Of a stretch of 64,000 nt of DNA, positions 1 to 44,700 are shown in pieces. How positions within the stretch are numbered: the stretch's first letter is position 1; every line of letters begins with the position of its first letter. A program made the position numbers and the translations under genes. The notes below the pieces were generated by a model, which had not been told where the DNA came from, did no database searches, and saw nothing but the letters and a program-made list of their open reading frames with translations. The DNA is from Fidelibacterota bacterium (GTDB lineage Bacteria; Fidelibacterota; UBA2242): NCBI GenBank assembly GCA_016782645.1, contig JADHYC010000003.1:2819-66818 (forward strand), written 5' to 3'.

Positions 1-1082
1 AGACGGGCTGTAGTCTCCTCGGTGATGCCGTCGGCGAAATACTCGTCCTCAGACGAGCTTAAATTCTCGAAGGGCAATACCACCAACATTTTTCTTTGGG
101 ACACAAGCTCCTTTTCAATTGGGATGAAATAGCGTAATGTGATTCCAACAGCAAGCGCCACGACAAGAACCAGCCCACCAACCCAAAACCATCGTCGGGC
201 CCGTCTTCTAACCGCCCTCAACGGGGCTGCTGGTCGATTTCGTGTAGTCGGAGCAGCCGTTATACGCTGAAGATGACGTAAATCAGCTACAAGATCTCCT
301 GCAGTCTGGTATCGCTCGGCCGGATTCTTCTCGATGCACTTCTTGACGATTCGCTCAAGCTCCAAAGGTACTTCGGTTCTTAAACCCGTCACTGTCTCTG
401 GCTCTTCATTCAAAATAGAATAGATTACTGCCTGTTCATAATCGCCTTTAAATGGTAATTGTCCGGTAACCATCTCATACAGTACAGTACCCAGTGACCA
501 AATATCTGTTCTGTGATCAACATCCTCTCCACGCGTCTGCTCAGGTGACATATAGGCTGCTGTACCTGTTGTGGTGCCAGTTTTGGTAAGCCTTGCTTGT
601 CCGGCTAATTTCGCAAGACCAAAATCCAAAATCTTCGCAATCCCATCCTTGGTAATCATTATATTAGCCGGTTTGATATCTCTATGCACAATGTCACGTT
701 CATATGCTCTGGCGAGACCTTGAGCAACTTGTATGGCAATTTCAATAGCTTCCTTAATTTTGACAGGACCACTCTTGATCTTTTGATTCAACGTCTTACC
801 TTCATAGTAATCCATGCATATGAACATTTGTCCTTCATCGGTTTCATCAATCTCATGAATAGTACAAATGTTATTGTGTTGAAGAGCTGATGCTGCTTGA
901 GCTTCCTGGATGAATCGAGACTTTGCCTCTGGATCGAGACTAAATGCTGGGGGAAGAAATTTTAGGGCAACGGTGCGTTTTAGCTTCGTGTCCTCTGCTT
1001 TATAGACTACGCCCATTCCGCCCTCGCCGAGTTTTTCGAGTATACGATAATGTGAAATTACTTTCCCATTTGGGATCGCCAT
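1..1082 (-). CDS. Ser/Thr protein kinase (Hanks-type), partial; CDS runs off window start
   Basis: Reverse-strand translation from ATG at 1082 gives MAIPNGKVISHYRILEKLGEGGMGVVYKA...HRDIKPANIM...DFGLAK...MSPEQ. The C-terminal region has the VVLPFENLSSSEDEYFADGITEE motif, typical of TolB-N/CadC-like sensor fusions. No stop codon occurs before position 1. Confidence 0.9.
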   Translation of the reverse strand, partial: MAIPNGKVISHYRILEKLGEGGMGVVYKAEDTKLKRTVALKFLPPAFSLDPEAKSRFIQEAQAASALQHNNICTIHEIDETDEGQMFICMDYYEGKTLNQKIKSGPVKIKEAIEIAIQVAQGLARAYERDIVHRDIKPANIMITKDGIAKILDFGLAKLAGQARLTKTGTTTGTAAYMSPEQTRGEDVDHRTDIWSLGTVLYEMVTGQLPFKGDYEQAVIYSILNEEPETVTGLRTEVPLELERIVKKCIEKNPAERYQTAGDLVADLRHLQRITAAPTTRNRPAAPLRAVRRRARRWFWVGGLVLVVALAVGITLRYFIPIEKELVSQRKMLVVLPFENLSSSEDEYFADGITEETTAR

Positions 1083-1190
1083 ATTAATACCTTATAGGTT
1101 ATCGAGAGCTATTCCTGCCATGGACGGGTCCACCTACATGCGGAAAGTGGGAAATTGTTTTCCCAGCATATACGCCGTCTTTTTGGTGGA

Positions 1191-2471
1191 TCATAATGTT
1201 TCTCTTTTTATTACTACCAGTGTAATATCATCCATCTGTGGAGCATCTCCAGTATGAAGTTTTACCGCTGCTATGATTTTCTCAATCAGCGTACTTGCGA
1301 GTTCATCCCTGTGCTTCATTGTAACCTCTACCAGTCTATTCTCACCGAATTCCTCCTCGTCGGCATTCATAGCTTCAGTGATGCCATCGGAGTACACTAA
1401 CAACAGGTCTCCCGGACTAAATGGAATCACCTGTTCTTTAAAAATAAAGTTTTCTAGGAAACCAAGAACAGTGCCACCGGTCTCCAATCGGCGAGGTTCT
1501 TTGTCTCCTGAGAAAAGAAATGGATAATCATGACCAGCATTAGAGTAGTATAATTCGTTTTTCTGGGTATTCAGTATTCCATAAAACAGGGTGGCAAACT
1601 TTTGAACGTCAGTGCTTTGAAAGAGGAGTTTATTTGACCGTTGGAGACAATCTTTGCAAGAGGTACTAAAGAGAGTCTGTCCTCGAAGTGTTGCCTGAAG
1701 GTTTGCCATCAACATCGCTGCTGGCATTCCTTTCCCTGAGATATCACCCAGACATATTGCCAGATGATGGTCATCGATGCGAATAAAATCATAATAATCT
1801 CCCCCAACCTCTTTAGCTGGAATACTTTTTCCAGCAATGTCATATCCAGCAATTTGAGGATTTTCCTTTGGCAACAAGTTAATCTGAATTTCATAGGCTA
1901 CTTTCAGTTCCTCTTCCATACGCAGGAGGATCTGTTCTTCTTCATACAAACGGGCGTTTTCAATAACCTGTGCCGATTGGCTGGCAATAATACACATCAG
2001 CCGCTGATCTTCAACGGTAAAACCTTCTTTCGCCTGCTTATTGAAGATATTTAGCACCCCTATCATACGACCTTTCAAGCATAAAGGGACACTCAGAAGC
2101 GATTTAATATTAAAATCCTTTCGATAAGCTATACTGAAGCGTTGATCCTTCTGAAAGTCGTTGATGACCAGAGGTTTTTGGTTCTTTAACATCCACCCTG
2201 ACAGTTGGATGCCAAAGTGGTAGGGGACCACATCAACTTTCGAGTCTACCTTACGTACCATAGTTTGGAAAGGCTTATCCGGTTTTTTCTCATCGAGAAG
2301 CATTATCGATCCCTGTTCCACTTTCAAATGTTTGATACACTTTTGGATGATCAGTTCCACTACCTGGTTTAGTTCTCTCGCGGAGCTTACTGCAGTAGCT
2401 ATTTCATTCAAAATAGAAAGTTCCTGAACAGCAGCACGCAGCCGATGTACTTCATGAGGATCTATTGTCAT
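1191..2471 (-). CDS. GAF domain + PP2C/SpoIIE-type (RsbU-like) serine phosphatase
   Basis: N-terminal GAF-like region. C-terminal GGDYYDF...GDISGKGMPAAMLMA...SDGITEA motifs are characteristic of the SpoIIE/RsbU PP2C family. Confidence 0.85.
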   Translation of the reverse strand: MTIDPHEVHRLRAAVQELSILNEIATAVSSARELNQVVELIIQKCIKHLKVEQGSIMLLDEKKPDKPFQTMVRKVDSKVDVVPYHFGIQLSGWMLKNQKPLVINDFQKDQRFSIAYRKDFNIKSLLSVPLCLKGRMIGVLNIFNKQAKEGFTVEDQRLMCIIASQSAQVIENARLYEEEQILLRMEEELKVAYEIQINLLPKENPQIAGYDIAGKSIPAKEVGGDYYDFIRIDDHHLAICLGDISGKGMPAAMLMANLQATLRGQTLFSTSCKDCLQRSNKLLFQSTDVQKFATLFYGILNTQKNELYYSNAGHDYPFLFSGDKEPRRLETGGTVLGFLENFIFKEQVIPFSPGDLLLVYSDGITEAMNADEEEFGENRLVEVTMKHRDELASTLIEKIIAAVKLHTGDAPQMDDITLVVIKRETL

Positions 2472-2508
2472 GATCTGATTAATGCTTTTTAGTCAAGGTC
2501 GATATTCC

Positions 2509-3318
2509 TCAGCCTGTTTCATAGCTCTCAATGGCTTCATCAACCGTGTCAAAGCTTTTGAACACTTTTACCAATTGTGTCGTCATTAAGACGCTGTAAA
2601 TTTTACGTGTAGGGCGGGCAATCCTCAAATCACCTCCAGCATTGCATAATGAAGTATAGGAAGCAAGTAGAGCTCCCAAACCGGTACTAGCAAACCATTT
2701 CACTTTTCCCATATCTACCACAATCTTTATTTGACTCTTTTCAATGAGCTCCTTGATATAAGGATGTAAGTGAATACTTTCTGGACCATTCATCATCTTG
2801 CCAGATAATGTTAAGAGCGTGACATCTCCTTTAATAGTTTCTTTAATCCTCATTTCGCTATTCTCCTCCTTTTTTTTCTTTTTAATGTACTTAATCAGAG
2901 TAATTTCATTAATATTGTCTGGTTTTCTCTCAAAATTTACTTCATCCATTAGCGCTTTTATGAGAGGGATTCCTAAACCACCATTCTTATAAGCCATGAA
3001 GTCTTGATTAATATTAAACTGTTCAATATCATCAAATTCAAATGCTTCTCCTCTGTTCTTAATTACTGCTTTGATTGCTTTCTCATCAATTGAAACTTTT
3101 AAGTCAACGCAGGATAGTCGATTACTACTAACTCCATGACGGAAGGCATTGTGGCAGGCTTCCCCAATGGCTAATTCAACCAAGTCTGCTTCCATATCTT
3201 CAAGACCATGTTGGGTGGAAATAAAGTGAATTAACTCCTTTATTTGTTCTAAATGTTTTTCAGAACCAGAAATTGAGATTTTGTAAATTGGATTGGATGA
3301 AGTTGAAATTCTGATCAT
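2509..3318 (-). CDS. Fusion protein: RsbW-like anti-sigma regulatory factor (HATPase_c_2 Ser kinase) + STAS anti-sigma-factor antagonist
   Basis: N-terminal half has ELAIGEACHNAFRHG...GGLGIPLIKALMDEV (RsbW/SpoIIAB kinase motifs). A KKKKKEE linker follows. C-terminal half is STAS-like (IVVDMGKVKWFASTGLGALL, a putative phospho-Ser/Thr site). The stop overlaps the downstream PP2C start (ATGA). Confidence 0.75.
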   Translation of the reverse strand: MIRISTSSNPIYKISISGSEKHLEQIKELIHFISTQHGLEDMEADLVELAIGEACHNAFRHGVSSNRLSCVDLKVSIDEKAIKAVIKNRGEAFEFDDIEQFNINQDFMAYKNGGLGIPLIKALMDEVNFERKPDNINEITLIKYIKKKKKEENSEMRIKETIKGDVTLLTLSGKMMNGPESIHLHPYIKELIEKSQIKIVVDMGKVKWFASTGLGALLASYTSLCNAGGDLRIARPTRKIYSVLMTTQLVKVFKSFDTVDEAIESYETG

Positions 3319-4034
3319 TGGTCAACTCTAATTACAGTAACAGTTATATTATCATTACCACCGCGCTCATTAGCTAAATTGACAAGCTCTTTGCAGGCAT
3401 TTGTTGGGGAATGCTTCTCCACTATTCGTAGCATCTCCTCACCACCTACTTTTCCAGAAAGACCATCAGAACACAGAAGAAGCACATCACCGTTCTCAAG
3501 TTTTTCACTCGAAATATCAGGTTGTATATTTCCACTTCCCACCGCTTGTAAAATTAAGTTCTTATTAGGGTGAACCTCAGCTATATCATTGGTGATAATA
3601 CCCTTATCCACCATCTGCTGTACCAATGAATGATCCTTAGTAATCTGACGCCATGTTCCCTGCCTGAACAGGTAAATTCTACTATCACCAACGTGGGCAA
3701 AATGTGCAATACTGTCCTTAATTAAAACTGCCACGATAGTGGCCCCCATTCCTTTGAAGTTTTGGTCCTCAGCAGCCTTAAATATTATCTTTTGATTAGT
3801 ATCTAAAATTGCTGACCGGAGAAATAGTGACGGATTTAAAACCGGCTTTAACTTAAATGATTCACAAATGATATTGACAGTCATCCGTGAAGCCGTTTTG
3901 CCACCGCGGTGTCCTCCCATTCCATCAGCTACTATAAAAAGGTACCCCCAAGAAGTTATTTCAGAGCCAAAGTAGTCCTGATTTGTTTCCCGGACCTTCC
4001 CTTTGTCAGAATAATTACCGTCTAAAAGTTTCAA
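3315..4034 (-). CDS. PP2C-family Ser/Thr protein phosphatase (Stp/PrpC-like)
   Basis: DGMGGHRGG, VGDSRIYL and CSDGLSG motifs; ~240 aa, typical of bacterial PP2C phosphatases. Confidence 0.85.
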   Translation of the reverse strand: MKLLDGNYSDKGKVRETNQDYFGSEITSWGYLFIVADGMGGHRGGKTASRMTVNIICESFKLKPVLNPSLFLRSAILDTNQKIIFKAAEDQNFKGMGATIVAVLIKDSIAHFAHVGDSRIYLFRQGTWRQITKDHSLVQQMVDKGIITNDIAEVHPNKNLILQAVGSGNIQPDISSEKLENGDVLLLCSDGLSGKVGGEEMLRIVEKHSPTNACKELVNLANERGGNDNITVTVIRVDQ

Positions 4035-4301
4035 TTTTTACACCTACATCAATTCCACATAGTATTTACCGGCTTTTCACATAGCAATATAATCTTGAGT
4101 GATAACATTTTGCAATAAAAAAATTAAGAAAAATGACAAATTTTAACATTGTAGATTAAATAATAAATACGTTTCAAATGATGCACTATGTTTTAAAATG
4201 AATGGTATGTAAATACTATACTGAATGATATATTGTCTTTTTACTCGTAAAAATTGCGATCGGTAATGGGAGAGGGAGAATTCTTCTGGTAAAGGTGGTC
4301 T

Positions 4302-4559
4302 TTATTTCTCATCAGAATCAATACTGACAGGGGTAAATTGTAGAATGTATAGGCCTGAACACACACTTGCCACATACGCATAGCTATAAACGTCACAGGC
4401 CTCCCCAGGAGTTTCATAGTATCCCACTTCATAAGGATTCGATGGTGTGGAGACATCTATGATACGAAGCCCTACATCGATTGATTGGAGGAGGGTTTTT
4501 CTATTATGTATACAGTTTACGTTATGCGGAGCAGTGAAGGCTTTATTTATCCGGTTCAT
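4302..4559 (-). pseudogene. Fragment of an LVIVD-repeat (beta-propeller surface) protein, one repeat unit only
   Basis: [46 protein letters not shown] matches the LVIVD repeat consensus (IDVSNPSNP..G.YDTPG.A.GV.V...YAYVA). Only 85 aa, no N-terminal or further repeats, GC-rich context. Confidence 0.4.
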
Positions 4560-4608
4560 TAATTAGTTAGAAAGCCTGAACATTTGATTCCGTTAGGTTT
4601 AGGTCACT

Positions 4609-5889
4609 CTAATTTTCTGCGTGATTAATCAGAGCTTCCAGGTAGCGTGATTTCACCTGTTGGCTTGCAAGGGCCTGTTTGAACGGAGGAAGTTTTAGAA
4701 TTACGCCTAAAACTCCAGCCATGGCTCGATGACTCCATAAGACCTGATTGTCAAAAATCAGGTTCTGCAACTTACCCCGTTCAATGGCCATCAACACCAC
4801 CCTGTGTGTGCCATTCAGGGGGGTAATAACTCTACTTGGTCGAGATTTCAGGTGAATACTGTTCTTTGTGCAAGTCCTAACGCAAACACCGCATCCCAGA
4901 CAGAGATCTTCATCCAACTTCGCCACTTTCATTTTGGGCTTGGCTGGGTTGTTCGATGAAACCAATGTCATTGCTTCTACCGGGCAGGCGGTCACACACT
5001 TGCCACATCCGTTGCAATCAGATTCGGACACAATAGGGATAAAGTTGGTTGTATGGACAGGGTTGAGAATTGCAAAACGTCTGGCAACGATCATCGCCTC
5101 GCAGCAGCACCCACAGCAGTTGCAAATGAAATTAACTTTCTCTCTTACATTTTCACCGAACTGAACCAGTTTTTGTTCATAAGCTTCCTGCAATAAATCA
5201 AGACATTCTTCCTTCTCTATCGAACGGGCACAACCGTACTTAATAAGCGACGCTGCTGTGTTGTTAAATGTCATGCATATTTCCTGCGGTGCATTGCAGG
5301 CTCTGCCCATATGATGCATCTTGTGACGGCAATAACAGATCCCAACACCCCGGTAAGTAGCATTATTTATGACTTCAGTCGCTCGCTCGTAATCCAGAAC
5401 ATACAGTGCATTTTCTTCGGACAAGGCAGGTTCATGGACAAAGGTACGCCCCAACTGAGTTTGGCCCTGGGTGAATAGCTCCCTGATGAAATCTTCTTCC
5501 ACATTTATGTATTCATAAAACAGTTCACTTAATACCTTCTGATCAATGTCATTTCGCACACGCATTAAGGAGAACTCGAAAAACCCCGCCATCGGAGGCG
5601 GCAGAGCATAAACGGACTCCCCATTCTGTTCGATGTCAACCAGGATAGCGCGACCAGCCAATTCATCCAGCACCTTTTGAGTGCTAGTCAGATCCATTTT
5701 CCAGATACGGCTGGCTTTTTTCGCTGTGAAGGATTTGATAGGCATGAGTGAAACCAGTTTGGCCTCTTTCTCACTAAAAAGCATTTTCAAGATTTTGAAT
5801 AATAGTTCAGAAGAGGGTGCGCCCTGAGGATAACGATTCAATCTGTCTGCTAGATTGGAATAACTGGATTTGATTGTGCTATGAGCCAT
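4609..5889 (-). CDS. Cys-rich iron-sulfur protein with two 4Fe-4S ferredoxin-type motifs
   Basis: CNGCGKCVTACP and CLGCGVCVRTC ferredoxin motifs, plus additional Cys clusters (CNCCGCCCEAM, CYCRHKMHHMGRAC). Function unknown. Confidence 0.6.
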   Translation of the reverse strand: MAHSTIKSSYSNLADRLNRYPQGAPSSELLFKILKMLFSEKEAKLVSLMPIKSFTAKKASRIWKMDLTSTQKVLDELAGRAILVDIEQNGESVYALPPPMAGFFEFSLMRVRNDIDQKVLSELFYEYINVEEDFIRELFTQGQTQLGRTFVHEPALSEENALYVLDYERATEVINNATYRGVGICYCRHKMHHMGRACNAPQEICMTFNNTAASLIKYGCARSIEKEECLDLLQEAYEQKLVQFGENVREKVNFICNCCGCCCEAMIVARRFAILNPVHTTNFIPIVSESDCNGCGKCVTACPVEAMTLVSSNNPAKPKMKVAKLDEDLCLGCGVCVRTCTKNSIHLKSRPSRVITPLNGTHRVVLMAIERGKLQNLIFDNQVLWSHRAMAGVLGVILKLPPFKQALASQQVKSRYLEALINHAEN

Positions 5890-5996
5890 GGTTTTATTTT
5901 TGTCTTTCTAACAGTCAATGCGTGAGATACGCCGGTTTTCGAAGCGATTTCATTTGGTAATTCTTAGCTGTTTTGAAAATAGCTCATACTCTTAAA

Positions 5997-6029
5997 TCGT
6001 TGAACAGCTCAAGACGTTATCTCCACGCA
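5997..6029 (+). repeat. Direct repeat copy 1 (atcgttgaacagctcaagacgttatctccacgc)
   Basis: ~85% identical to copy 2 at 6715-6744, same orientation. Together they flank ORF 6136..6666. Confidence 0.6.
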
Positions 6030-6135
6030 ATGATTCCACTGCTTGCACTCTGACGCCGAATTAAAGATTTTCGAATATCGTTATTTTATTTATATGGCGT
6101 CAAGTGCGAAGCAGTTTCGTTATGCATCTTTTTCA

Positions 6136-6666
6136 TTATTCATTTTCTTCCTCTAACAAGTCAGTAAGAAGTTTTCTAACATCCATATAATCCAAATTTC
6201 TCAACAGAAATGAGGAATCAATATAATAGTTAGAAAGCTTCTTCCAATATAATCCACTTTGTAGCCTGTCTAAGAATTCTCGAATTTTATACCTTATAAC
6301 CTTGTTGTCGGGATTGGAGATTCCTGTCACATCACCGATCTTGCTTCGATAGTCGATGATAACTCGACTAAATTGCTTTGGTACTCGCTTACCTCTAAAA
6401 AACCAAAGATCCGCCTTGATTTGCATTTCTTCTGCATAAAATTCAATCCATCCAATAATGCGGTTGTATTTCCAAGAGATCTTCCGAGGATTAATAGGAG
6501 GTGGATTATCGCACAAGTATTGTTCATAACTACTATCGTAATTAAATCCATTCTTCTTTTCTTGTTCAATCCTGCGATCCCGAATTTTAGTTAAGTACTC
6601 GTGATATTTTTCGAGTTGTTCTCGATAGATTGGAACACGAAAGATTAAATTATCCTTACGCGACAT
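6136..6666 (-). CDS. Hypothetical protein (176 aa), very AT-rich
   Basis: Intact ORF rich in K/N/Y/I. No recognisable motif. Flanked by ~30-bp direct repeats. Confidence 0.5.
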   Translation of the reverse strand: MSRKDNLIFRVPIYREQLEKYHEYLTKIRDRRIEQEKKNGFNYDSSYEQYLCDNPPPINPRKISWKYNRIIGWIEFYAEEMQIKADLWFFRGKRVPKQFSRVIIDYRSKIGDVTGISNPDNKVIRYKIREFLDRLQSGLYWKKLSNYYIDSSFLLRNLDYMDVRKLLTDLLEEENE

Positions 6667-6714
6667 AGTATTTAAAAATTAAAAATGGTTTTGAATGTTC
6701 TAAACTCTGAAATC

Positions 6715-6744
6715 ATCGAATAGCTCAAGGCGATATCTCCACGC
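6715..6744 (+). repeat. Direct repeat copy 2 (atcgaatagctcaaggcgatatctccacgc)
   Basis: Matches 5997-6029. Confidence 0.6.
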
Positions 6745-6893
6745 GAGTTATTTGTTCATTAGTCGTAACATTTGCTTTATTGTGGTGAAAAACTAATATA
6801 CCCGATTAGTAATGATTTATTTTCATCATAATTGAATAATAGGCGTATTAAAAAACACGCTTCACCATCACCATATCCATTAGGAATTGAGAA

Positions 6894-7700
6894 TTAAACA
6901 AGAATTCTAATAATATCATCAGGATCACCAATATCTGATAAATTTATTTTTGAAATGTCTTTTGTACGTGATAATGTTATTTGATATGGTGCTTCAGTAG
7001 TGGCATTTAAATAATAACCTGAACCGGCTCCTATTTGCTGAATAGCTACGGTTTCGGCTTCAACACTTGTAATATGTGCAGTTTTCATACCTATATTCCG
7101 AAATCTAAAATCTAAAATTGCAGGTGTACAAAAGGGAATATCAAACTCTATAAATTCTTTAGGTTTAAATTTCATATTACATTCTATAGGTTCAAATTCA
7201 TAGAATTTAAGACGTTTCGATTCAATTATCGCTCTTTTTAATATTTCATTGCTTTTCCAGTATAAACGAGAATTAGAAATGTCAAACCATCTCCAAATAA
7301 AAGATAAATATTTTTTTTCAAATACATTTTCATATTTATTATACAGAGTTTGAAGTTTATTCTTAATGATATAATCATAATAGAATCTTCCATATTTCAT
7401 TCGATCTAATTGTTCTTTTTTATTGGCAAAGTTTTCAATTGAGTTCTGTAAATATGGTATTGTAGAATTATTTAAATCCTGATTTAATACATTGCTCTTA
7501 TAGTATTGTTGTACTTTATTGATTGCTTTATTTAGTTCTTTCACTGAGTAAAAAGTTTTTTTCCAAGACTTTTCATAAGCATCTATATATTCAAGTTTGA
7601 GTTTAGCAGGACGAAATTTCCTTTTGTATATGTAAATTGGTATTGCTATTGCGATTATTGGAATAAAAATATATGCAATAAATAAAGTAATATTATCCAT
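6894..7700 (-). CDS. Hypothetical membrane-anchored protein (N-terminal TM helix)
   Basis: N-terminus MDNITLFIAYIFIPIIAIAIPIYIY is strongly hydrophobic. The remainder is a K/N/Y-rich soluble region with no recognised domain. Confidence 0.5.
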   Translation of the reverse strand: MDNITLFIAYIFIPIIAIAIPIYIYKRKFRPAKLKLEYIDAYEKSWKKTFYSVKELNKAINKVQQYYKSNVLNQDLNNSTIPYLQNSIENFANKKEQLDRMKYGRFYYDYIIKNKLQTLYNKYENVFEKKYLSFIWRWFDISNSRLYWKSNEILKRAIIESKRLKFYEFEPIECNMKFKPKEFIEFDIPFCTPAILDFRFRNIGMKTAHITSVEAETVAIQQIGAGSGYYLNATTEAPYQITLSRTKDISKINLSDIGDPDDIIRILV

Positions 7701-7904
7701 TATTTCACAACTTTACTATTGATTAGAATATATCCTATGATTATATGACATAATTCACAATTTCAATGTTTCTCATCAGAGAAATTTTTAGTGATAAGAA
7801 CTTTTAAATAAAACTTTCTTCATAATTTTAATTTACTTATTGACAATCCTATTTTCAAGACTTAATGCAGCCACCTCTTGATATATTACTAAGGAGAGCG
7901 TATA

Positions 7905-7958
7905 ATGGATTACATCGTCTTGAATATCGAACAAGGAATTCTGAATGTTGATTTTTGA
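7905..7958 (+). CDS. Mini-ORF 1 (MDYIVLNIEQGILNVDF, 17 aa) with strong SD
   Basis: AAGGAG lies 8 nt upstream of the ATG. A near-identical leader and first four codons recur at 8044. Confidence 0.3.
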   Translation: MDYIVLNIEQGILNVDF

Positions 7959-7989
7959 AGTAAAATTCAATATTCGCTAATCGATGTTC

Positions 7990-8020
7990 CCTGCCTGACG
8001 GCAGGCAGGCTTGTTCATTA
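7990..8020 (+). terminator. GC-rich hairpin (cctgcctg-acgg-caggcagg) followed by T-rich tract
   Basis: Perfect 8-bp GC stem in a ~28% GC region, followed by cttgttcattatt. It sits between the two mini-ORFs. Confidence 0.35.
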
Positions 8021-8043
8021 TTAAACGATTCTAAAGGATTTTA

Positions 8044-8100
8044 ATGGATTACATCATAGACAATAAAAATAGGATAAAACTGAAGATAAATTCACTGTAA
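8044..8100 (+). CDS. Mini-ORF 2 (MDYIIDNKNRIKLKINSL, 18 aa) with SD-like AAAGGA
   Basis: Shares the 14-nt string taATGGATTACATC with mini-ORF 1. Confidence 0.3.
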   Translation: MDYIIDNKNRIKLKINSL

Positions 8101-8242
8101 AATGCAATTAATAAATAGCCCCCATTAGTAACTCCCGGATTTTCTTTTTCTTATTCCATTGACATCCAACAGATTAAAGTGTTTTTACACTCTGAACGGC
8201 GAACACTGAACCTGTGAACGCCTACAATAATTTTTATACTTA

Positions 8243-9310
8243 TCACTCAAACCGATACTGAATTCCAGTAGATAAAAACCACTTATCATAATAGATCCCG
8301 ATATATCTGGTTTCATTCCTCATGAGTGCTAATTTCCCTGTCATTGATAACTTACCGATAACCGGTCTTTCCCAACCGAGGAAAAATTGATTCTGTACGT
8401 TTTGCTCCGGGTCAGGGTTGTAATACATCAGATGTTCAGTCGGATCATCTGTATATTGTTTTAACTGGACTTGTGTAATGACTTGAATTATTGTTTTGAA
8501 TATTTTTCTTGTTGCATAAAGTTGGAGTGAGAGGTTATAAAATGATGAGTAATCACTATTGGAATCAGTAAAAAGAAGTCTGCAATTGGCTCCTGCTATC
8601 ATTTTCTTTCTGTATTCCACACCGATTTGGGTAGATAATATTTTGTCCTTCTGAAAAGGTAGATTAGAGGTTTCATCGCTATCTCCTTCATGAAAGATCG
8701 TACGATTAAGATAGCGGGCTTCAGTATAATCAAGTTTCCAGTTTAGTATAGTGTACGGGTTTAGAGAATGAAGAAGTTCCAGAATAATTCCTTTTTGTTC
8801 GGAATTGAATAGTTTAAATGACTCGTAATAATTATTACGATAATATAATCCGATTTGTGAGATCGTTTTAGCCTTTTTGTATCCTAATCTTCCGTTAATT
8901 TCGCCATTTAGATAATCTCCATTATTGTTTATCCATATTTTATTAAAAAGATTGATGTGAATTGAGAAGAATAATGAAGGTGAAAAATCATGCTTATTTC
9001 GAAGGTTAAAGGTATTTGTTACTTTTTTCTCTCTGGGATTGTTCTGATATACAGCAAAATTCCCTATCCAGTCTATCAATAAAAATTTTTTACTTTTAGT
9101 TTTTGTATAATTTAATCCACACCAGAATTGACCGTTATTATCGAGAACTTCTTTTTCACTGTCTTCGAAGATATTACTTTCTTGTGCAAATTCTGATTTA
9201 AGAAAAAATGAGAAAGATTTTATTATTTCTGCTTCTAAAGAACTGCAGAATAGAAAGACATGTAAATAAAAAATTGTTAAGAATATATTTTTCGTTTTTT
9301 TAGTATTCAA
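8243..9310 (-). CDS. Hypothetical secreted protein, probable outer-membrane beta-barrel
   Basis: N-terminal signal peptide (MNTKKTKNIFLTIFYLHVFLFCSSLEA). C-terminus ends ...GIQYRFE with an alternating hydrophobic pattern. Confidence 0.5.
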   Translation of the reverse strand: MNTKKTKNIFLTIFYLHVFLFCSSLEAEIIKSFSFFLKSEFAQESNIFEDSEKEVLDNNGQFWCGLNYTKTKSKKFLLIDWIGNFAVYQNNPREKKVTNTFNLRNKHDFSPSLFFSIHINLFNKIWINNNGDYLNGEINGRLGYKKAKTISQIGLYYRNNYYESFKLFNSEQKGIILELLHSLNPYTILNWKLDYTEARYLNRTIFHEGDSDETSNLPFQKDKILSTQIGVEYRKKMIAGANCRLLFTDSNSDYSSFYNLSLQLYATRKIFKTIIQVITQVQLKQYTDDPTEHLMYYNPDPEQNVQNQFFLGWERPVIGKLSMTGKLALMRNETRYIGIYYDKWFLSTGIQYRFE

Positions 9311-9431
9311 TATAAGTGGTTGTTAGTTACTTAAGTTTTGAGTATAAATGAATTTTTAAAATTCAACGTGTGGTGATTTTTAAATAATTCTTTAGCATCT
9401 TATCCGCTAACTGGCTGATATCTTCGACATA

Positions 9432-9845
9432 TTAATATGACTTATTTTTCATTCCAAGTTGATTAGAAATGTTCTTTCCCTTTTCTATCTCTTGAATAGT
9501 CTCGCCTATTTGTTCAATGACTCCTTCAAGATTCTCATATATATCTGTGTTTATGTACCTTAGAAAATGAATACCGTAAGTCTCTATATACTTCTGTCTA
9601 TCATTGTCTTTTGTTTTTGATCCTGGTTGAAAATGACTCGTACCATCAACTTCAATAGCTAATTTTAATTTTGGACAGTAGAAATCAATTACATAAGAGC
9701 TAACACTATACTGCCTTCGAAATTTACAACCATAAACTTGTTTTCCTTTGAGTTTTGACCATAATATAATTTCAGCTTCTGTCATATTTCTTCTTAGATA
9801 TTTTCTTCTTTTTGTTTCTTTTTTTCTATTAAAAACTTTAGTCAT
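9432..9845 (-). CDS. DUF559 (Vsr/restriction-endonuclease-like fold) domain protein
   Basis: LWSKLKGKQ...YRFRRQ...IDFYCPKLKLAIEVDGTSH...D..RQK.IE..G..FLRY is the classic DUF559 pattern. Confidence 0.8.
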   Translation of the reverse strand: MTKVFNRKKETKRRKYLRRNMTEAEIILWSKLKGKQVYGCKFRRQYSVSSYVIDFYCPKLKLAIEVDGTSHFQPGSKTKDNDRQKYIETYGIHFLRYINTDIYENLEGVIEQIGETIQEIEKGKNISNQLGMKNKSY

Positions 9846-9864
9846 TAGTTTTTACTTTTTATAC

Positions 9865-10008
9865 TACCACCCCTCAATCCCCTCCTTGGCAAGGAGGGGA
9901 AAAAGGGGTGGTTAATACATTTACAAAATCAAAAAACATCTTTTTAAATTACTTTCCCTTCTTCCCTTTCTGGTAGCTGCCGGTGGAAAAAGAGGTGGTT
10001 AATGCTTG
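9865..10008. repeat. Nested palindromic element plus a degenerate second copy
   Basis: Outer stem accacccct/aggggtggt and inner stem cccctcctt/aaggagggg at 9866-9911. The 3' half GGAAAAAG(G/A)GGTGGTTAAT recurs at 9986-10004. Confidence 0.6.
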
Positions 10009-10084
10009 TTAAAATCAATTGTTAAAAATAGATTTTTTCTGCAAAACTTGAGTTAATTATTCATACTAGCTGTAACAGGACTGC

Positions 10085-11143
10085 TTATCGATTGAATTCT
10101 TTAATTTCCTTGATTGTCTGTAAATAAGAAGTACGAATAGAATCCAGATGTGCTATATAATTAGGTAAATTAGTGGATGGGATATTTTGAAATAAAAACA
10201 GGTATTCAGTATACAAGTTAGTCATCGGCGTTTCTGATTGTAAAAGCCCTTTATTGTTTGATAGTTCAGCATAGTTTGCAAAGTCACTTTCGTATGCTAT
10301 AGAGGGTCCCCAGGAACGACCGTTTTCTTCAAAAGTATTGGTGGAATATACATTCGATTCTCCTGATAAAGCTGTCATTTCTGTACTGAACTGAGACAGC
10401 CTTTTTCGAAGCAATTCTTCTTCTTTTACAGCATCTATTATTAGTTCAATTTGATTAATTTTATTTTCGAGGATTTTTATTAAGTCCTCCTGTATGACTT
10501 TTTTCTGTTTTTGATTTATGAAAAGAGATAAAAACGTGTCGTCTTCGGGAAGGATATTTTGAGTATACAGAGTAAAATATTTTTGACTGTTTAACAACCA
10601 GTCTCTTCTTTGCTTGAGTTCAAGTAAATATAGAAGATTGTTTTTTCTTTTTGTTGAATCTGCCCTGTTTTCCAGTTCAGAAATGGTTGAATCAATTTCA
10701 ATAGTCAGGACGATATAATACTTCTCAAATATCTGATTTGCGCTGGATTTTAATTCAAGCAATTTTTGATAAAATGATATTACATTTTGGTTTAATTCTG
10801 CTTTTTTTTCAGTTATCTTTACTAATTTTCTGCGGTTGAACCAGCTGGGATTATTTTGAGATTCTAATTTATTAGTTTCAATATTTAATTTCTGCAGAGC
10901 ATTTTCCGGTGTAGAATGCTGTTTTTTGAGTTTGATGATTTCGCTGATATTGTGAATAAGTTTATTGTGATATTCTTGAATTGCACTACTGCTGAATGCT
11001 ATTCCTACAATTAATGCGAAATTGAACCCGAAGACTATAAGTAGTTGATATTTGTCTGCCTGCCGAAGCCCGCCTTCCAAAGTACTTGTACGGCGGATAG
11101 ACCTCGGCGCAGGCTGGGATTTTTTTCTCATTTGTTTTATCAC
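10085..11143 (-). CDS. Hypothetical membrane protein with extensive coiled-coil
   Basis: N-terminal TM helix (LLIVFGFNFALIVGIAF). The rest is Q/E/K/L-rich with heptad-like character. Lies immediately downstream of the NtrC-type regulator. Confidence 0.5.
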   Translation of the reverse strand: MIKQMRKKSQPAPRSIRRTSTLEGGLRQADKYQLLIVFGFNFALIVGIAFSSSAIQEYHNKLIHNISEIIKLKKQHSTPENALQKLNIETNKLESQNNPSWFNRRKLVKITEKKAELNQNVISFYQKLLELKSSANQIFEKYYIVLTIEIDSTISELENRADSTKRKNNLLYLLELKQRRDWLLNSQKYFTLYTQNILPEDDTFLSLFINQKQKKVIQEDLIKILENKINQIELIIDAVKEEELLRKRLSQFSTEMTALSGESNVYSTNTFEENGRSWGPSIAYESDFANYAELSNNKGLLQSETPMTNLYTEYLFLFQNIPSTNLPNYIAHLDSIRTSYLQTIKEIKEFNR

Positions 11144-11215
11144 TGGATTATGGACGAATAATCTCCAATTAAAAATCTATTCCTTGTGATCTCTGCGTTC
11201 TCTAGGGTGAATTTT

Positions 11216-12583
11216 TTATAAATATTCTTCCTCTCTAACATCATATTTTTCCATTTTGTAATAAAGAGTACTTGTCTTGATGTTTAATTTTTTAGCAGCG
11301 CGTTGCTTTACGCCATTTGTTTCATGCAATGCGTTGATTATCATTTCTCGTTCCATTTTGCTTAGAGTTTGTATCAGATCTCCGTCCGGGATTTGAAATG
11401 AATCTTCTTTTATATTATCTATATCTGTAAAAGTAAAAAGTGAATCAGTAAAAACATCCTCATCAATGAAAACAAGAGCGCGTTCAATGAAATTTTCTAA
11501 CTCTCTAATATTTCCGGGCCAGGAATATGCCTGGAGCTTTCGAATGACACTTGCTGTCACTTGGGGAATATTACGATTGAGTTTTTTCGATTTTATTTTA
11601 AGTATGAAATCGAGCAATAATGGAATGTCCTCTTTTCTGTTACGTAGAGGGGGGATATGTATTGGAATTACGTTAAGTCTATAAAACAGGTCGGAGCGGA
11701 AGAATTTTTCTTTTACTGTCTGCTTTAAATCTTTATTTGTTGCAGCAATTAACCGGAAATCGCTTTTAATATATTTTTCGCCACCTACTCTTTGAAAGCG
11801 TTTATTTTGCAATACTCTTAGTAATTTTACTTGAAGGGCAGGGGACATCTCTCCGATTTCATCCAGAAAAAGTGTTCCATTGTCGCTTTGTTCAAATTTA
11901 CCGATATGAACTTTCATGGCTCCTGTGAATGCACCTTTTTCGTGCCCAAAGAGTTCACTCTCTAAAAGATTTTCATTTAATGCTCCGCAATTAACGGCTA
12001 TAAATGGTCTGTCCTTACCAAAGCTTTCGTTATGAATAGTATAAGCGACAAGCTCTTTCCCGGTTCCACTTTCACCTGTGATCAATATAGAGCTATCAAT
12101 GTTTGCTACTTTTGAGATTTGCGCTTTTATTTTTTTTATAGACTCTGAAATCCCAATTAAGAGTGGTACCTCAATAGGTGCCGCTTTTATTTCCTGTTTT
12201 AATGCCCATCGTTCATAAACTGCTGCTACTTTCTTTCTTAGCTCGGCTATTGAAAAAGGTTTTGTTATAAAATCTTCAGCACCATGTTTCATCGAATCAA
12301 CTGCAATATCTACTGTTGCATAAGCAGTGATTAAGATAACGTCGGTTGCCAGATTTTGCTTTTGAATTGTTTTAAATAATTCAATTCCGTCTATTTTTGG
12401 CATTTTTATATCAGTAATTACCAGATGAAATAAAGATGATTCAAATTTATCCAATCCTTCTTTACCATCAACCGCTGAATCAACAAAATATCCTTCTTTT
12501 TTCAGAGATGTAACGATACCTTCTCTCATTGATTGGTTATCTTCGACGGCTAAGATTCGATATTTTTTCTTTAGATCACTCAT
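11216..12583 (-). CDS. Sigma54-dependent Fis-family response regulator (NtrC/AtoC-like)
   Basis: REC domain (ILAVEDN...DIKMPKIDGIEL); AAA+ sigma54-interaction domain (GESGTGKELVA, GAFTGA, ESELFGHEKGAFTGA); C-terminal Fis-type HTH. Confidence 0.9.
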   Translation of the reverse strand: MSDLKKKYRILAVEDNQSMREGIVTSLKKEGYFVDSAVDGKEGLDKFESSLFHLVITDIKMPKIDGIELFKTIQKQNLATDVILITAYATVDIAVDSMKHGAEDFITKPFSIAELRKKVAAVYERWALKQEIKAAPIEVPLLIGISESIKKIKAQISKVANIDSSILITGESGTGKELVAYTIHNESFGKDRPFIAVNCGALNENLLESELFGHEKGAFTGAMKVHIGKFEQSDNGTLFLDEIGEMSPALQVKLLRVLQNKRFQRVGGEKYIKSDFRLIAATNKDLKQTVKEKFFRSDLFYRLNVIPIHIPPLRNRKEDIPLLLDFILKIKSKKLNRNIPQVTASVIRKLQAYSWPGNIRELENFIERALVFIDEDVFTDSLFTFTDIDNIKEDSFQIPDGDLIQTLSKMEREMIINALHETNGVKQRAAKKLNIKTSTLYYKMEKYDVREEEYL

Positions 12584-12584
12584 A

Positions 12585-13967
12585 TTAACTCTTCGGTAAA
12601 ATTAAGACAAACTCCGTGCCGTTCTCATCAGAGCGAACAAGATAAATATTTCCCCCGTGCTGCTCGACGATAGATTTAGTGATGGTCAGCCCTAAACCGA
12701 CGCCACTCGCCTTGGTGCTGAAGAAAGCATCAAAAATCTGAGACTGGATTTCTTGTGGGATAGATTTGCCTTTATTACGAAAATGTATTTTTAACTCTGT
12801 TTTGCAATTTATTATTTTTACTTCAATATTGTTAGAACTATCAGATGCCTCAATGCTGTTTTTTAACAAATTGTAGAAGGCATGCCGCATTTTTCCAGGA
12901 TGGATGTTTGTCTTTCCATTACCAACAATAGAAATATTACGGTTGGGAAATTCACTCTGAATTTGTGATACAGACTCTTGGAGGATTTGCCTTATGTCGG
13001 TAAAAATAGTGTTATGTTCAATTGGTCGGGCATAAGTTAAAAATGATTCAACGATTTCCGAAAGATGTTTTACTTCTCTCGAAATGGCTTTTGTATACTT
13101 TGCAATTTTAGAAGAGTGTTCCGATTCTTCTAACAACAAGTCTGCATTTACTTGCATTCCGCCAAGAGGATTTCTAATCTCATGCGCTACTGAAGCGATT
13201 AGCTGTTTGTTTTCTTTTTCTCTTTGATCAATTTCAGATTGCATTTTTTGCATGGTTTTACCAAGGAATCCTATTTCATCATTACGATTCTCAAGTGAAA
13301 ATGATCTACCGCGTCCTTTTCCAATTTCAGAAGCAAATTGAGTGAGTTTATATAGAGGGTGAGTTAAAGTTTGAGATAGTATTAGCGATATAACAATACT
13401 TATTAAAAGAACTATTCCTCCAATGGTGAAGATTTGTCGACGAAGTTTTGCAGTTTCCTGAAAAAAATCAGCATTAGCATCAATGGCTAAAATAGTAGTA
13501 GAACTGTCAGGAAAAGAAACCGGACAGAAGACAGATTTGTAATGATTTCCTGATCTGTCGGAGAATAGAGGTGAACTAACTGTTTTGCCTTCTAATGCTT
13601 GAGAGATTTCCCTTTTGTGAAGCATAACGGATTTGACTGCGCTTTCTTCCTTTCCTACAGATAGAATAATAATTCCTGATTCCTGAATAATATAGATTGT
13701 ATTAGCGGAAAATTGTAATAAATGTCGGCTAAAGAATTGCTTCAGTGAATCTTTTACAATAAGCGATTCGGGATATTTGTTTAGGAATTCAATCAGGGAA
13801 AAGTCTAACTTTTTTCTGAAGAGAGTAATATTAGATTTCATGTGCTGAGATAACTGTTTTTCCAATGCTTGCCTAGTCTGCCAGTAAATCGGTACCGACA
13901 AAGATAGAATAACCAGTATAACAAGTGAGCCGGTAACTAAAGCAATTTTCCAGGATAATTTTTTCAT
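12585..13967 (-). CDS. Sensor histidine kinase (TM, HAMP-like, HisKA, HATPase_c)
   Basis: H-box ASVAHEIRNPLGGMQ. The C-terminal G-boxes GVGLGLTITKSIVEQHGGNI. Two TM segments. The stop is 1 nt from the regulator start. Confidence 0.85.
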   Translation of the reverse strand: MKKLSWKIALVTGSLVILVILSLSVPIYWQTRQALEKQLSQHMKSNITLFRKKLDFSLIEFLNKYPESLIVKDSLKQFFSRHLLQFSANTIYIIQESGIIILSVGKEESAVKSVMLHKREISQALEGKTVSSPLFSDRSGNHYKSVFCPVSFPDSSTTILAIDANADFFQETAKLRRQIFTIGGIVLLISIVISLILSQTLTHPLYKLTQFASEIGKGRGRSFSLENRNDEIGFLGKTMQKMQSEIDQREKENKQLIASVAHEIRNPLGGMQVNADLLLEESEHSSKIAKYTKAISREVKHLSEIVESFLTYARPIEHNTIFTDIRQILQESVSQIQSEFPNRNISIVGNGKTNIHPGKMRHAFYNLLKNSIEASDSSNNIEVKIINCKTELKIHFRNKGKSIPQEIQSQIFDAFFSTKASGVGLGLTITKSIVEQHGGNIYLVRSDENGTEFVLILPKS

Positions 13968-25652: not shown

Positions 25653-28600
25653 ATGAAGTTTTTAAAAATACTTTTCTTTTATGCCATTTTTTTCGCTATC
25701 AGTTTTGCTCGACCTACCTGGGTTTCTCTTGATAGTTCCGATGAAACGAAGCCACTCGTTGAAGTCCTTTCCTCAAATCAAGATGAAACGGTGTTAAAAT
25801 TCCAATTAAATGGTTTTTATGTCGATGAAATTGAGATTAATGGTGAAATATATTCCATGTTTTCAGTTCCCAATCTTACAACCCTTCACAAAAAAAGTTT
25901 GCCTGATTTCCCAAAATTTACAGGAAGTATTATAGTTCCTGATGATGCAAAAATGATGTACACGATTGAATATGAAGATTGGGCTGAGTATAAATATTAT
26001 GCACCTGTTCCTTCTAAGGGTGCGATTTCACGAAACATTGATCCTGCGACCGTACCTTATGTTTTTAGTGAAATTTATGATAAAAACGAACCTTTCCCTG
26101 GTGAAAACATAGAGTTAGGAGCACCTTATATTCTTCGTGATTATCGAGGATTAACAGTTCGCTTTGTGCCATTTCAATATATTCCTGACAAAGGTATAAT
26201 TCGTGTTTGTAGAGAGATAGTTGTTAAAGTATCAAAAGTGGGAGCCGGTGAAATCAATACGAAATCCCGTGAGAGAGATTCCGCGAGAATACCGAAAAAT
26301 CTACAAAATTTGTACAAAGCTCATTTCATTAACTATGAGTACGTAACTCGTGGTAAATATGAGCAACTTTCGGAGCCAGGAAAGTTAATTGTTATTACTT
26401 ATGATGATTTTGTCAATGACGTGCAGGAGCTTGTTGATTGGAAAATCCAGAAGGGATTGGAAACGGACTTAGTTCCATTATCCACAATTGGAAGTTCTTC
26501 AAGTGACATAAAGGATTATCTGCAAGATCAATATGACAGTGAAGAGAGCTTTACGTATGTTATTCTTGTTGGTGATGCTCAGCAGATTCCTCCTCTTTAT
26601 GGAACGGTGGAGAGTGCTGCATCTGATGGATCATATTGTTTATTAGAGGGAGATGATTTTTACTCGGATGCGTTTATATCCAGAATTTCAGCGCAAAATT
26701 CTTCTCAAGTCTTGAATCAGATTAGCAAAATCGTCAATTATGAAAAGAGTCCGGATACAGGAGTAAATGCTGATTGGTATTCTAAAGGGACAGGTATTGC
26801 CAGTGATGAATTAGGTGGCACTGAGTTAAGAGATTGGGAAAGAGCTGATTTTTTGAGAGATATGTTACTGAGTTTTACATATACAGAAATTGATCAGATT
26901 TATGATCCTGGTGCTACATCATCTCAGGTTATTAATGCAGTAAGTGAGGGGCGTTCAATTCTTAATTACATCGGACACGGCTCCGGAACTTCATGGGGAA
27001 CGACTGGTTTCAGTGTTTCGCATGTATCGCAATTAAGCAATGGACACAAAATACCGTTTATTATTGATGTATCGTGTTCCAACGGATCCTTTACCGGATA
27101 TAGTGATTGTCTGGCGGAAGCATGGGTGAAAGCCGGCACATCAGAAAATCCCAAAGGTGCAATAGGTATGTTTTCTGCCTCTACAGGAGCGTCCTGGGTT
27201 CCTCCTTGTGTTATGCAACATGAAGCTATCGAACTGCTAACAACAAACCAGAAGCAGTCAGTTGGAGGTTTAGTATTTCATGGAATTTATGCTACTCTGG
27301 ATGAATATCCTGATAATGATGGAGTAGCGGTTATGGAGCAGTACAATTTATTTGGCGATTGCAGTTTAATTATTCGTACTACACCGCCGGATTATTTGTA
27401 TACTTCTCATCAGCCGGTTATTATCGTGGGTTCCCAGACTTTTGATGTATCGATGTCCGGAACTCCCGATGTGCTCGTATCGCTTTCAAAAGATAGCGTT
27501 CTCTATGCTTCTGGTGAAACAAACATAGCTGGATATGTCACACTTCAATTAAAGGAAGAAATAAATGAACCGGGTGAATTTATTTTAACTGCTACTGCTT
27601 TTAATAAAGTGCCTCTTATTAAAACAATTCAGGCAATTACTCCCGAAGGTCCATGGCTGACTTTTCAAGATTATACAATAGAAGATACTGGCTCAGGGAA
27701 TGGCAATAGAAAATGGGATTTCGGAGAGATGATAGATTTATATGTTTCGCTAAAAAATGTCGGCATAGACTCGGCTTTAAATCCTGTGACGAAAATATCA
27801 ACTGAAGACCAATACGTTGTTATCATACAGGACAGTTCGTCTTATCCTGATATTGACAGCGCAGGTGTTGAGCAGAATGAAGTTGCTTTTACAATGACGG
27901 CAAATGTTAACACACCAAATAGTCATTATGCTGAATTTCATATCGGCACGTTTGTTAATGATACATTAGGATGGGACAATAAATTTTCAATTCCAATTTA
28001 TTCACCATTGATTGGTCTCCTTGACTTTACTTTAAATGTAGTTGGTGGAAATGGGGATGATGTGTTTGATGCCGGTGAAACTGCTCAACTTATTGTTTCT
28101 CTGGAAAATACAGGTGGTTCCACTGCTGAAAATGTTGTGGGGACCATTAGTACTGATGATCAATATTTAACAATACAAAATGCGACTTACAACTATGGAA
28201 TCGTTTTTGCCGACGGTGGAACGGTTATAAATTCTTCATATCCTTATTTAATTGGAGCATTGCCAACAACGCCAGTTGAACATCATGTAGAGTTAAACCT
28301 GGCGATTACAGGTGATAATGGATATTTGACAAATCTGAGTATAGATTTTATCATCGGTTTTCCTGAAATTCTTGTGTGGGATAAGGATGGAAATCATAAT
28401 AGTGGGACAGTTCTGAATGCGTTAGTTACTGATAGTCTGGGAAAATCTTCAAATTATGTTATTGGTTCTTTACCATCAGATAATCTCAGCTATTATAAAG
28501 CAATATTTATATTTCTTGGTGTATCTCCCGACAATTATAAATTAACCGAGTCCGATGCAGAGCTATTGGTGGAATTTTTAAATAACGGTGGATGCATTTA

Positions 28601-43884: not shown

Positions 43885-44700
43885 CTTGATATATTTATTA
43901 TCATTTTTTCAAAAGGTTCAAAATATGTTCTTGTTGTAATAAAATAAGGTCTGCCTCACTTTCAATGAATGGCTTCACATCTTCTTTAATACGATTCCGA
44001 CTTAACGATTTAATTTTTTACAAATTTCCACCAGTTATTTTTTGTAAGATATGAAAGACTACTATCAGTTTGTTGAATTGTATTGTTTAAGTAAGTGAAA
44101 TTTGGTTGGATATCTTGCCAATGGTTGAGGTAGAATGCAAGATCATATAGATCACGACCTTTAGGATAACTTCTGCAGAGAATAGCGTGTAATTTACAAA
44201 AAAAAAGTTGGCAAGTCATGATGCCTTACAGCAAACGGAAAATACTTGTTAATCAGTGTTGTCTCAGTTTGAAATCCTTCAGGAGGATTAGTGTCAATCT
44301 CAATCTTAACATTCAATTTTTCATTTTTATTTGGTGATAATCCGGCATCATAAAGAAGCCTCTCAAATTTGATAAAGACTGATTGGACTATCTTTTCTAC
44401 CTGCTTTTTGAGTGAGATTTGATAACCTGCTAGTTCCAAGCCTTGCTTAAGTGAGTCTAACTCTTTTATAGTAATACTTTTAGAGTTTTGATATTCTAGA
44501 TGAAAATCAAGATCCTCCGAAAACCGATTTATTTTATGCAGAATTCTTAGAGCTGTTCCACCGTGAAAAATTAATCTATTCAATAAATTTTGTTCAAATA
44601 GTCTTCTAAGAATAACATGCTGGAGATATTCACGAAGTTTATTTCTTGCCAGTCTCTGATTTGATTCATTTTTAATAACTTGTAGTGCTTTGTCCCTTAT
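43885..44700 (-). pseudogene. AbiEii/AbiGii-family nucleotidyltransferase toxin, disrupted by at least two frameshifts
   Basis: Three consecutive frames carry family segments. Frame a has RELLIRDKALQ...LREYLQHVILRRLFEQNLLNRLIFHGGTALRILH...RFSEDLDFHLEY. Frame b has ...YPKGRDLYDLAFYL. Frame c has KEDVKPFIESEADLILLQQEHILNLLKK. Confidence 0.65.

Follow-up and report, generated by a model that had tools for sequence, protein, structure and literature searches.

A signalling operon at the start of a 64,000-nt stretch of a Fidelibacterota bacterium (GTDB lineage Bacteria; Fidelibacterota; UBA2242; NCBI GenBank assembly GCA_016782645.1, contig JADHYC010000003.1, forward-strand positions 2,819 to 66,818; hereafter the window, position 1 being its first letter) codes for a 269-aa protein in which an RsbW/SpoIIAB-like GHKL kinase and a STAS domain of the RsbV/SpoIIAA type are joined in one chain. 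We propose that this locus is very probably an ordinary RsbW/RsbV/PP2C partner-switching module, lying beside Hanks-type Ser/Thr kinases, in which a very recent and still polymorphic one-base change has fused two genes. The initial annotation of this DNA had instead read the fusion as an unusual, purpose-built hybrid signalling device. This is not borne out by the comparisons reported here, in which a 1-nt deletion in a poly-A tract joins genes that are split in near-identical strains and that are separate in 9/9 more distant relatives in which both can be read.

The junction preserves the layout of two genes almost untouched. The minus-strand sequence across the linker is ATT AAA AAG AAA AAA AAG GAG GAG AAT AGC GAA ATG AGG, and a single extra A in its second, longer run of adenines makes the upstream frame read ...KKKKKGGE-TAG, ending 4 nt before the STAS ATG. 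In the split alleles the gene calls end at precisely this TAG (the 2860-2858 site) and begin at precisely this ATG (the 2853-2851 site), and neither the ribosome-binding site nor the ATG of the STAS gene has been lost from the fused allele. The 64-kb window contains 14 runs of at least 8 A/T and only one run of 9, which lies at 44198-44206, at the end of an open reading frame (ORF) on the minus strand (44194-44583).

A word-indexed protein search with the fused protein returned one fused match at 99% identity and six others at 51-64% identity. The latter are stand-alone HATPase_c_2 proteins of 148-152 aa, several of which end in tails such as KKGGK, KKEGN or KKGDK, encoded in the frame of the split layout. 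The fused protein belongs to a 90%-identity cluster of 32 members, of which all those with names are from metagenome-assembled genomes (MAGs) of Candidatus Marinimicrobia/Neomarinimicrobiota; the cluster mixes both forms: fused members of 269 aa (MBL7135129.1, which is identical to the window protein, MCK4295142.1 and MCK4448585.1) and split pairs of 153/154 aa and 114 aa, such as MCK4689434.1 with MCK4689433.1. When their DNA is compared, near-identical alleles differ at the junction in the tract only.

For a comparison of haplotypes, the tract was read in 26 contigs that had been retrieved by exact match to a fused or split RsbW sequence (loci are cited by L numbers). The tract is A5-G-A8 in the fused loci (the window, L020-L029, L031-L033 and L038), A5-G-A9 in the split loci L014-L019 and A5-G-A4-C-A7 in the split loci L034-L037, while L001, an 89%-identical relative whose contig is cut at the tract, has A4-T-A7 and a split reading. 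L030, of haplotype F2a, is counted as fused by its gene call only and was left out of the tract counts. A8 is found in the window and in all 18 fused contigs read at the tract, and tract length is constant within every haplotype group: all A8 in F1 (the window and the five contigs L020-L024, plus L038 as F1b), in F2a (five contigs with the tract read) and in F2b (three contigs), and all A9 in the six contigs of the A9 haplotype, with the interrupted haplotype comprising four contigs plus L001. In all, the fused allele is found in 20 contigs besides the window, in three haplotypes and always with a called 269-aa gene; the contigs stem from metagenome assemblies, two GenBank MAGs and separate assemblies of sequencing runs, some of which may share samples. 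Two fused SPAdes contigs have a stated coverage of 34x and 22x. The F2 and A9 haplotypes have an identical 30-nt flank and yet differ in run length, which argues against a context-driven systematic error. Given its presence in 20 contigs and the way that tract length tracks haplotype, the fused allele is, as far as these assemblies allow one to judge, a real and heritable one that varies within a recombining population, rather than a random sequencing error. The initial annotation had allowed that a frameshift or a sequencing error might have joined two genes artificially: a frameshift does join them, but as a reproducible allele.

The species-level relatives (L002 and L005-L011, at 61-77% identity) were drawn from genome and metagenome scans, the JGI metagenome scan having returned 4 loci, and include Neomarinimicrobiota and Fidelibacterota MAGs; several of the relatives are deposited only as uncultured bacteria. 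They always have two separate ORFs, the junction being an ATGA overlap, an 11-nt overlap ending in ...NED*, or a nearby stop, and a GGAG motif ahead of the STAS ATG is conserved. Because of this consistent layout, the ancestral state reads as two translationally coupled genes; as the genes overlap, the kinase and STAS genes of these relatives are probably coupled in translation. The long A run is not present in L002 and L005-L011 and is interrupted in L001 and L034-L037; hence, it is not a conserved recoding signal. Thus, the orthologues do not share the fusion, for the genes are split in sister haplotypes and in all species-level relatives, nor do they retain a slippery run in the manner of programmed recoding. 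What is seen, within a group of 2-3% divergence, is a coding homopolymer that varies among close relatives and changes the frame, as in phase-variable genes.

Within this in-group, DNA divergence is about 2-3% and the variable sites are mosaic. The STAS coding sequence of the fused F2 haplotype is identical over 342 nt to that of the split, interrupted haplotype Int1, and the segment downstream of STAS in F2b differs by 0.3% from the split A9 haplotype as against 2.1% from fused F1. These similarities of F2 to split haplotypes indicate that the tract changed more than once or was moved by recombination; the sequences call for at least two changes of the tract, or transfers. An attempt to count the origins of the fused allele, single or repeated, was set aside, as two neighbour-joining trees built from different segments disagree and the sites are mosaic; with such recombination, independent slippage events cannot be enumerated. 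The fused and split haplotypes differ at 0-8 positions per gene, too few for a test of relaxed selection or of the ratio of nonsynonymous to synonymous substitution rates (dN/dS).

The operon consists of four co-directional genes on the minus strand, and both this arrangement and the domains that the initial annotation had assigned are confirmed by ORF calls and Pfam, each named domain exceeding its curated cut-off (Table 1). The catalytic motifs are intact in both PP2C phosphatases and in the Hanks-type kinase, as read from the translations: in the stand-alone PP2C the metal-binding motifs DGMGGH, GDSR, SDGL and GGNDN are legible, as are VALK, HRDIKPAN and DFG in the kinase, whose portion in the window covers the kinase domain, a transmembrane helix and the beginning of the extracytoplasmic part. 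The PP2C stop overlaps the ATG of the fused ORF (ATGA, 3318-3315). Between the fused ORF and the GAF-SpoIIE gene there is a gap of 37 nt and between the latter and the kinase gene one of 108 nt. Hence, the translational coupling that had been ascribed to all four genes does not hold throughout, the first junction alone being an overlap. A scan of window positions 1-4700 for promoters and terminators gave sites no more numerous than in shuffled sequence.

Table 1. Features of the signalling operon and of the fusion junction (window coordinates)
Feature	Position	Strand	Details
PP2C Ser/Thr phosphatase, stand-alone	3315..4034	-	239 aa, TTG start; Pfam PP2C_2 E=1.7e-21, PP2C E=1.9e-15
HATPase_c_2 + STAS fused ORF	3318-2509	-	269 aa
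RsbW/SpoIIAB-like GHKL kinase half of fused ORF, residues 1-155	2854..3318	-	Pfam HATPase_c_2
Poly-A tract A5-G-A8, Lys linker codons; site of the 1-nt length difference	2870..2883	-	A8 run 2877-2870
Shine-Dalgarno-like GGAGGAG inside fused ORF	2869-2863	-	sequence
Ancestral-frame TAG, out of frame in fused allele	2860-2858	-	sequence
STAS start ATG (Met156), followed by MRIKETIKG...	2853-2851	-	typical STAS protein start
STAS (RsbV/SpoIIAA-like) half of fused ORF, residues 156-269	2509..2853	-	Pfam STAS
GAF-SpoIIE (RsbU/RsbP-type) PP2C phosphatase	1191..2471	-	426 aa; SpoIIE E=2.8e-47, GAF_2 E=4.8e-16
Hanks-type Ser/Thr kinase, 5' part	1..1082	-	ATG 1082, first 360 codons, leaves window at its start; Pkinase E=1.5e-54

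The single 269-aa ORF with its Lys/Glu linker and poly-A tract is thus present in the window as described, and Pfam profiles, sequence matches to solved structures and fold matches concur in the identification of its two halves as RsbW-type and STAS. The kinase half matches HATPase_c_2 over residues 21-143 (E=1.1e-18, 67.9 bits against a cut-off of 27.4) and, in sequence, B. subtilis RsbW (6m36, E=2.9e-9) and SpoIIAB. The STAS half is recognized over residues 162-262 (E=1.1e-9, 38.4 bits against a cut-off of 22.6) and matches TM1081 and SpoIIAA. In an AlphaFold2 model built from a 15-sequence alignment (mean predicted local distance difference test score, pLDDT, 79.4; predicted TM-score, pTM, 0.51) both domains are folded and the linker is of low confidence. 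The N-terminal half of the model superimposes on RsbW, SpoIIAB and UsfX with Foldseek target-normalised TM-scores (TMt) of 0.82-0.92, and the C-terminal half on SpoIIAA and RsbV with TMt of 0.86-0.89. Ser211, in the motif WFASTGLG, aligns with the first Ser of SpoIIAA DSSGLG (ASTGLG = DSSGLG in the 1th8_B alignment), the phospho-site Ser58 of that protein, and it is invariant in an alignment of natural fusions (A1). The linker KKKKKEENSE (residues 146-155) places 10 residues between ...IKYI and MRIKE..., within the range of roughly 9-16 residues seen in natural fusions.

Such natural fusions are recurrent. An exhaustive search of 1.84 billion cluster representatives gave 7151 matches at E<=0.001; among the best 150 of these, about 20 proteins cover both domains in one stretch, 13 of them being 235-275 aa long. 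Pfam analysis of ten both-domain proteins recovered HATPase_c_2 followed by STAS in 10/10, six being two-domain proteins of 258-274 aa, one having the architecture REC-HATPase_c_2-STAS and one SpoIIE-HATPase_c_2-STAS (P0088). The HATPase_c_2-STAS single-chain architecture is accordingly already known and not new here. The natural fusions show only 22-29% identity to the window protein, indicating independent fusions. The closest in form are two-domain proteins of about 250-275 aa (for example the Bryobacterales protein MCY4584572.1, of the P0034 cluster) with the same domain order, size and linker length. These keep the canonical G1-box DxGxG, whereas the window protein has an Asn, and the P0034 cluster (53 members) looks uniformly fused, with 256-262 aa in all 15 members listed, unlike the mixed cluster of the window protein.

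Comparable parts have been characterized elsewhere. The module shares with the Bacillus RsbW-RsbV-RsbU/RsbP and SpoIIAB-SpoIIAA-SpoIIE systems the same three components, with kinase, STAS and PP2C in that order nearby, matching folds (TMt 0.8-0.9) and a conserved N-box, G2 box and STAS Ser; it differs from them in having a GAF sensor, a G1-box Asn, a kinase and STAS in one polypeptide and no sigma gene in the operon or the 64-kb window. In Rv1364c of M. tuberculosis, sensor, PP2C, GHKL kinase and antagonist domains lie in one chain, and the antagonist (STAS) domain is reportedly autophosphorylated and autodephosphorylated (PMC7693655). There, too, a GHKL kinase domain is covalently followed by its STAS substrate, an order shared by P0088 in its SpoIIE-HATPase_c_2-STAS form. 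The window system differs in that its phosphatase is a separate gene and its fusion, known from sequence alone, arose by a 1-nt indel and is not conserved in orthologues.

Against the reading of an ordinary module with a recent fusion stands, as the most serious contender, the proposal that the A8/A9 run is itself a functional switch, with replication and/or transcriptional slippage toggling between tethered and free forms, their ratios and the signalling set-points. In many bacteria a run of nine A invites transcriptional slippage, and it is hypermutable in replication. Here, tract length differs between otherwise near-identical haplotypes (F2 and Int1 in STAS, F2b and the split A9 haplotype downstream of it), both tract states recur across many samples, and the window has just one other run of at least nine A/T. 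As at contingency or slippage loci such as T. thermophilus dnaX (A9) and Shigella mxiE, the length of a coding run, here A8/A9 and variable among close relatives, sets the downstream frame; in mxiE, a single product is made from two overlapping ORFs by transcriptional slippage (PMC1088944). However, the run considered here is absent from distant relatives and interrupted in L001 and L034-L037, so that it differs from those loci in lacking conservation across species, and both its outcomes are potentially functional rather than ON/OFF states. Moreover, the mosaic sites let recombination explain the distribution of alleles without repeated slippage, and an indel that is neutral, or mildly deleterious but tolerated, fits the same data. 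We therefore regard a functional switch as unlikely, if still worth attention. It is conceivable that the A9 allele might also give rise to fused protein, and the A8 allele to separate proteins, in some amount, and that the population might also toggle; that this amounts to a phase-variable gene fusion which tunes the set-point of a signalling module, instead of turning a gene on or off, is a conjecture to which we would give no better odds.

Two further readings fare much worse. That the fusion is a homopolymer sequencing or assembly artefact, the organism really having two genes, might be suspected of a single base in an 8/9-A run, the classic site of such errors, in a MAG whose protein has split versions within the same 90% cluster. 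It is nevertheless very improbable, given A8 in 20 contigs besides the window, two of them at the coverages stated above, a tract length constant per haplotype, and different lengths in the same 30-nt context in F2 and A9. Least credible of all is the idea of a dedicated, evolved RsbW-STAS single-chain switch that forms with the Hanks kinases a new hybrid device with an output other than sigma sequestration. In its favour, the fused ORF is there, its linker is as long as those of natural fusions, Hanks kinases and two PP2Cs adjoin it, an arrangement kept in several relatives, and no sigma gene was found in the 64-kb window. But every other species examined, like the sister haplotypes, has split orthologues; the Shine-Dalgarno sequence, the ATG and the now out-of-frame TAG survive intact from the two-gene layout; the architecture is known from elsewhere; and partner switches commonly lack a nearby sigma gene.

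Some points weigh against the favoured reading of an ordinary module with a young fusion. The Asn88 in place of the G1-box Asp makes kinase activity uncertain, and at the model's pTM of 0.51 a docking of STAS on its own kinase domain is conjectural. At 2-3% divergence there are too few substitutions for dN/dS to speak to selection, and the A8/A9 calls come from assembled contigs, which leaves a small residual doubt about base-call support. Finally, the fused protein is known here as a translated sequence, its production, stability and function being predicted only.

With these provisos, we envisage the following course for the ordinary module and its fusion. The module comprises an RsbW-like GHKL Ser kinase/binding protein, a STAS antagonist with a phosphorylatable Ser and a GAF-regulated SpoIIE-type PP2C. 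The ancestral rsbW would have ended in a Lys-rich tail, ...KKGGE, with its TAG 4 nt short of the STAS ATG. One sublineage would have lost the base interrupting the Lys codons (A4-C/T-A7 to A9), and the loss of a further A (A9 to A8) would then have led the rsbW frame into the STAS frame, giving the 269-aa protein with its linker of about 10 residues. This path from an interrupted run via A9 to A8 appears to be the most economical one. In operation, the RsbW-like protein would bind unphosphorylated STAS or another target and phosphorylate STAS; in the fused allele, STAS would be tethered to the kinase, as in Rv1364c, and binding and phosphorylation would take place within the fused molecule or its dimer. 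The GAF-PP2C would still reset the switch by dephosphorylating Ser211 of STAS, and the retained Shine-Dalgarno sequence and ATG probably still allow some free STAS to be produced. The output would go to a partner encoded elsewhere, be it a sigma factor or some other protein. The Hanks kinases and the small PP2C may, as their gene neighbourhood suggests, feed into the same STAS or kinase. A precedent is M. tuberculosis PknD, which phosphorylates the STAS regulator Rv0516c (PMC1847690): there too, receptor-type Ser/Thr kinases and a STAS protein occur in one setting, and in several relatives of the window locus the kinases adjoin the module; the link here is one of gene neighbourhood alone, and the N-terminal extension of Rv0516c that bears its modified site, Thr2, is absent from the window STAS.

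The substitution in the G1 box deserves separate consideration. In GHKL proteins the Asp of this box (DxG) contacts adenine. Its place is taken by Asn88 (window 3055-3057, minus strand), KNRGEAF aligning with ADEGDSF of RsbW, and the Asp is retained in RsbW and in the natural fusions. The change is shared with close relatives: among the window protein and its 17 closest stand-alone homologues (18 sequences; alignment A2), 10 have N at this position, 5 have D, 2 have H and one has S. The kinase half otherwise keeps the N-box residues E53 and N57 and the G2 box GGLG. E53, N57 and G116 are invariant in both alignments, joined in A2 by G90, and G114 is kept in at least 90% of the sequences of A1. 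As these N-box residues and the glycines of G1 and G2 are invariant, this pattern suggests that the nucleotide site is still under selection. Nevertheless, the Asn-type G1 box may mark a kinase-weak or altered-nucleotide subfamily of RsbW-like proteins, and RsbW homologues without kinase activity are known in mycobacteria. A companion to the conjecture of a toggle, and no likelier, is that this family with an Asn in G1 may have an altered or lost kinase activity and that STAS may be phosphorylated instead by the adjacent Hanks kinases.

The order RsbW-like, STAS, GAF-SpoIIE is conserved in L002, L006-L010, L014 and L020, and Hanks kinases adjoin the module in L008, L009, L010, L014 and L020. 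In L020, which carries the same fused allele, the GAF-PP2C is followed by four successive paralogous Hanks kinase ORFs (5659-13853). The window kinase is the first of these four; the three complete ones have the architecture Pkinase-TPR (853, 753 and 894 aa) and the fourth is truncated. A TolB-N-like C-terminal motif had been attributed to the window kinase; the full-length L020 kinases have no TolB_N Pfam match at E<=0.01. The small upstream PP2C is confined to the in-group among the loci compared. In two scaffolds with the fused allele (L026, 2123-2222, and L031, 2668-2767) the GAF-PP2C gene appears disrupted, which is due to 100-N scaffold gaps and not to pseudogene formation.

The observation that the cluster has no sigma factor extends to the whole window: no sigma-70-family gene was found in the 64 kb with phmmer using RpoE, SigF and SigB seeds, and a Pfam scan of 24 window ORFs found no sigma factor either. 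The RpoE seed did pick up extracytoplasmic function (ECF) sigma factors in related loci. In two Neomarinimicrobiota loci an ECF-type sigma gene is found in divergent orientation some 400 bp upstream of that for the RsbW-like protein (L007 7183-7683; L008 7055-7609, minus strand) and is followed by a 327-aa ORF, putatively its own anti-sigma factor. We considered this sigma factor as a partner of the module and set it aside as probably unrelated, since it is absent from the in-group and has this putative anti-sigma factor downstream. The lack of a neighbouring sigma gene is not unusual, as the SypA/SypE, BtrV/BtrW and RbaV systems act on other outputs (PMC8256260). One contig of 21.6 kb (CAYPST010000069.1) has two RsbW-STAS modules (L010 6083-8404 and L011 7977-8805), and paralogous partner switches therefore exist in the group.

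Other features of the window may be noted in passing. In the 570-nt gap upstream of the PP2C gene, an 85-aa ORF (4302-4559, minus strand) with a single LVIVD repeat (E=1.1e-6) resembles the remnant of a gene; it is also called in L021. The G+C fraction is 0.39-0.44 over the signalling operon and a Fer4 gene (window 1-6000) and 0.30-0.34 beyond (6001-12000). The ORFs at 6136-6666, 6894-7700, 8243-9310 and 10085-11143 have no Pfam match, while that at 9432-9845 is DUF559 endonuclease-like; this low-G+C stretch past the operon may be an inserted island. Further along are an NtrC-type sigma-54 activator with its histidine kinase (11216-13967), a 1385-aa gingipain-like C25 peptidase (25653-29810) and a 1370-aa hybrid PAS/GAF histidine kinase with a receiver domain (32953-37065).

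In conclusion, the single-chain RsbW-STAS protein of this lineage is very probably a very young fusion of a standard pair and not a new signalling design. In GenBank the fused protein is named simply 'anti-sigma factor antagonist', which serves as a caution for the annotation of MAGs. As the fused and split alleles are one base apart in near-identical backgrounds, they offer a natural before-and-after pair for the effect of tethering a STAS antagonist to its kinase. Moreover, the locus would show how such fusions are born, from overlapping, translationally coupled genes and a homopolymer of Lys codons.

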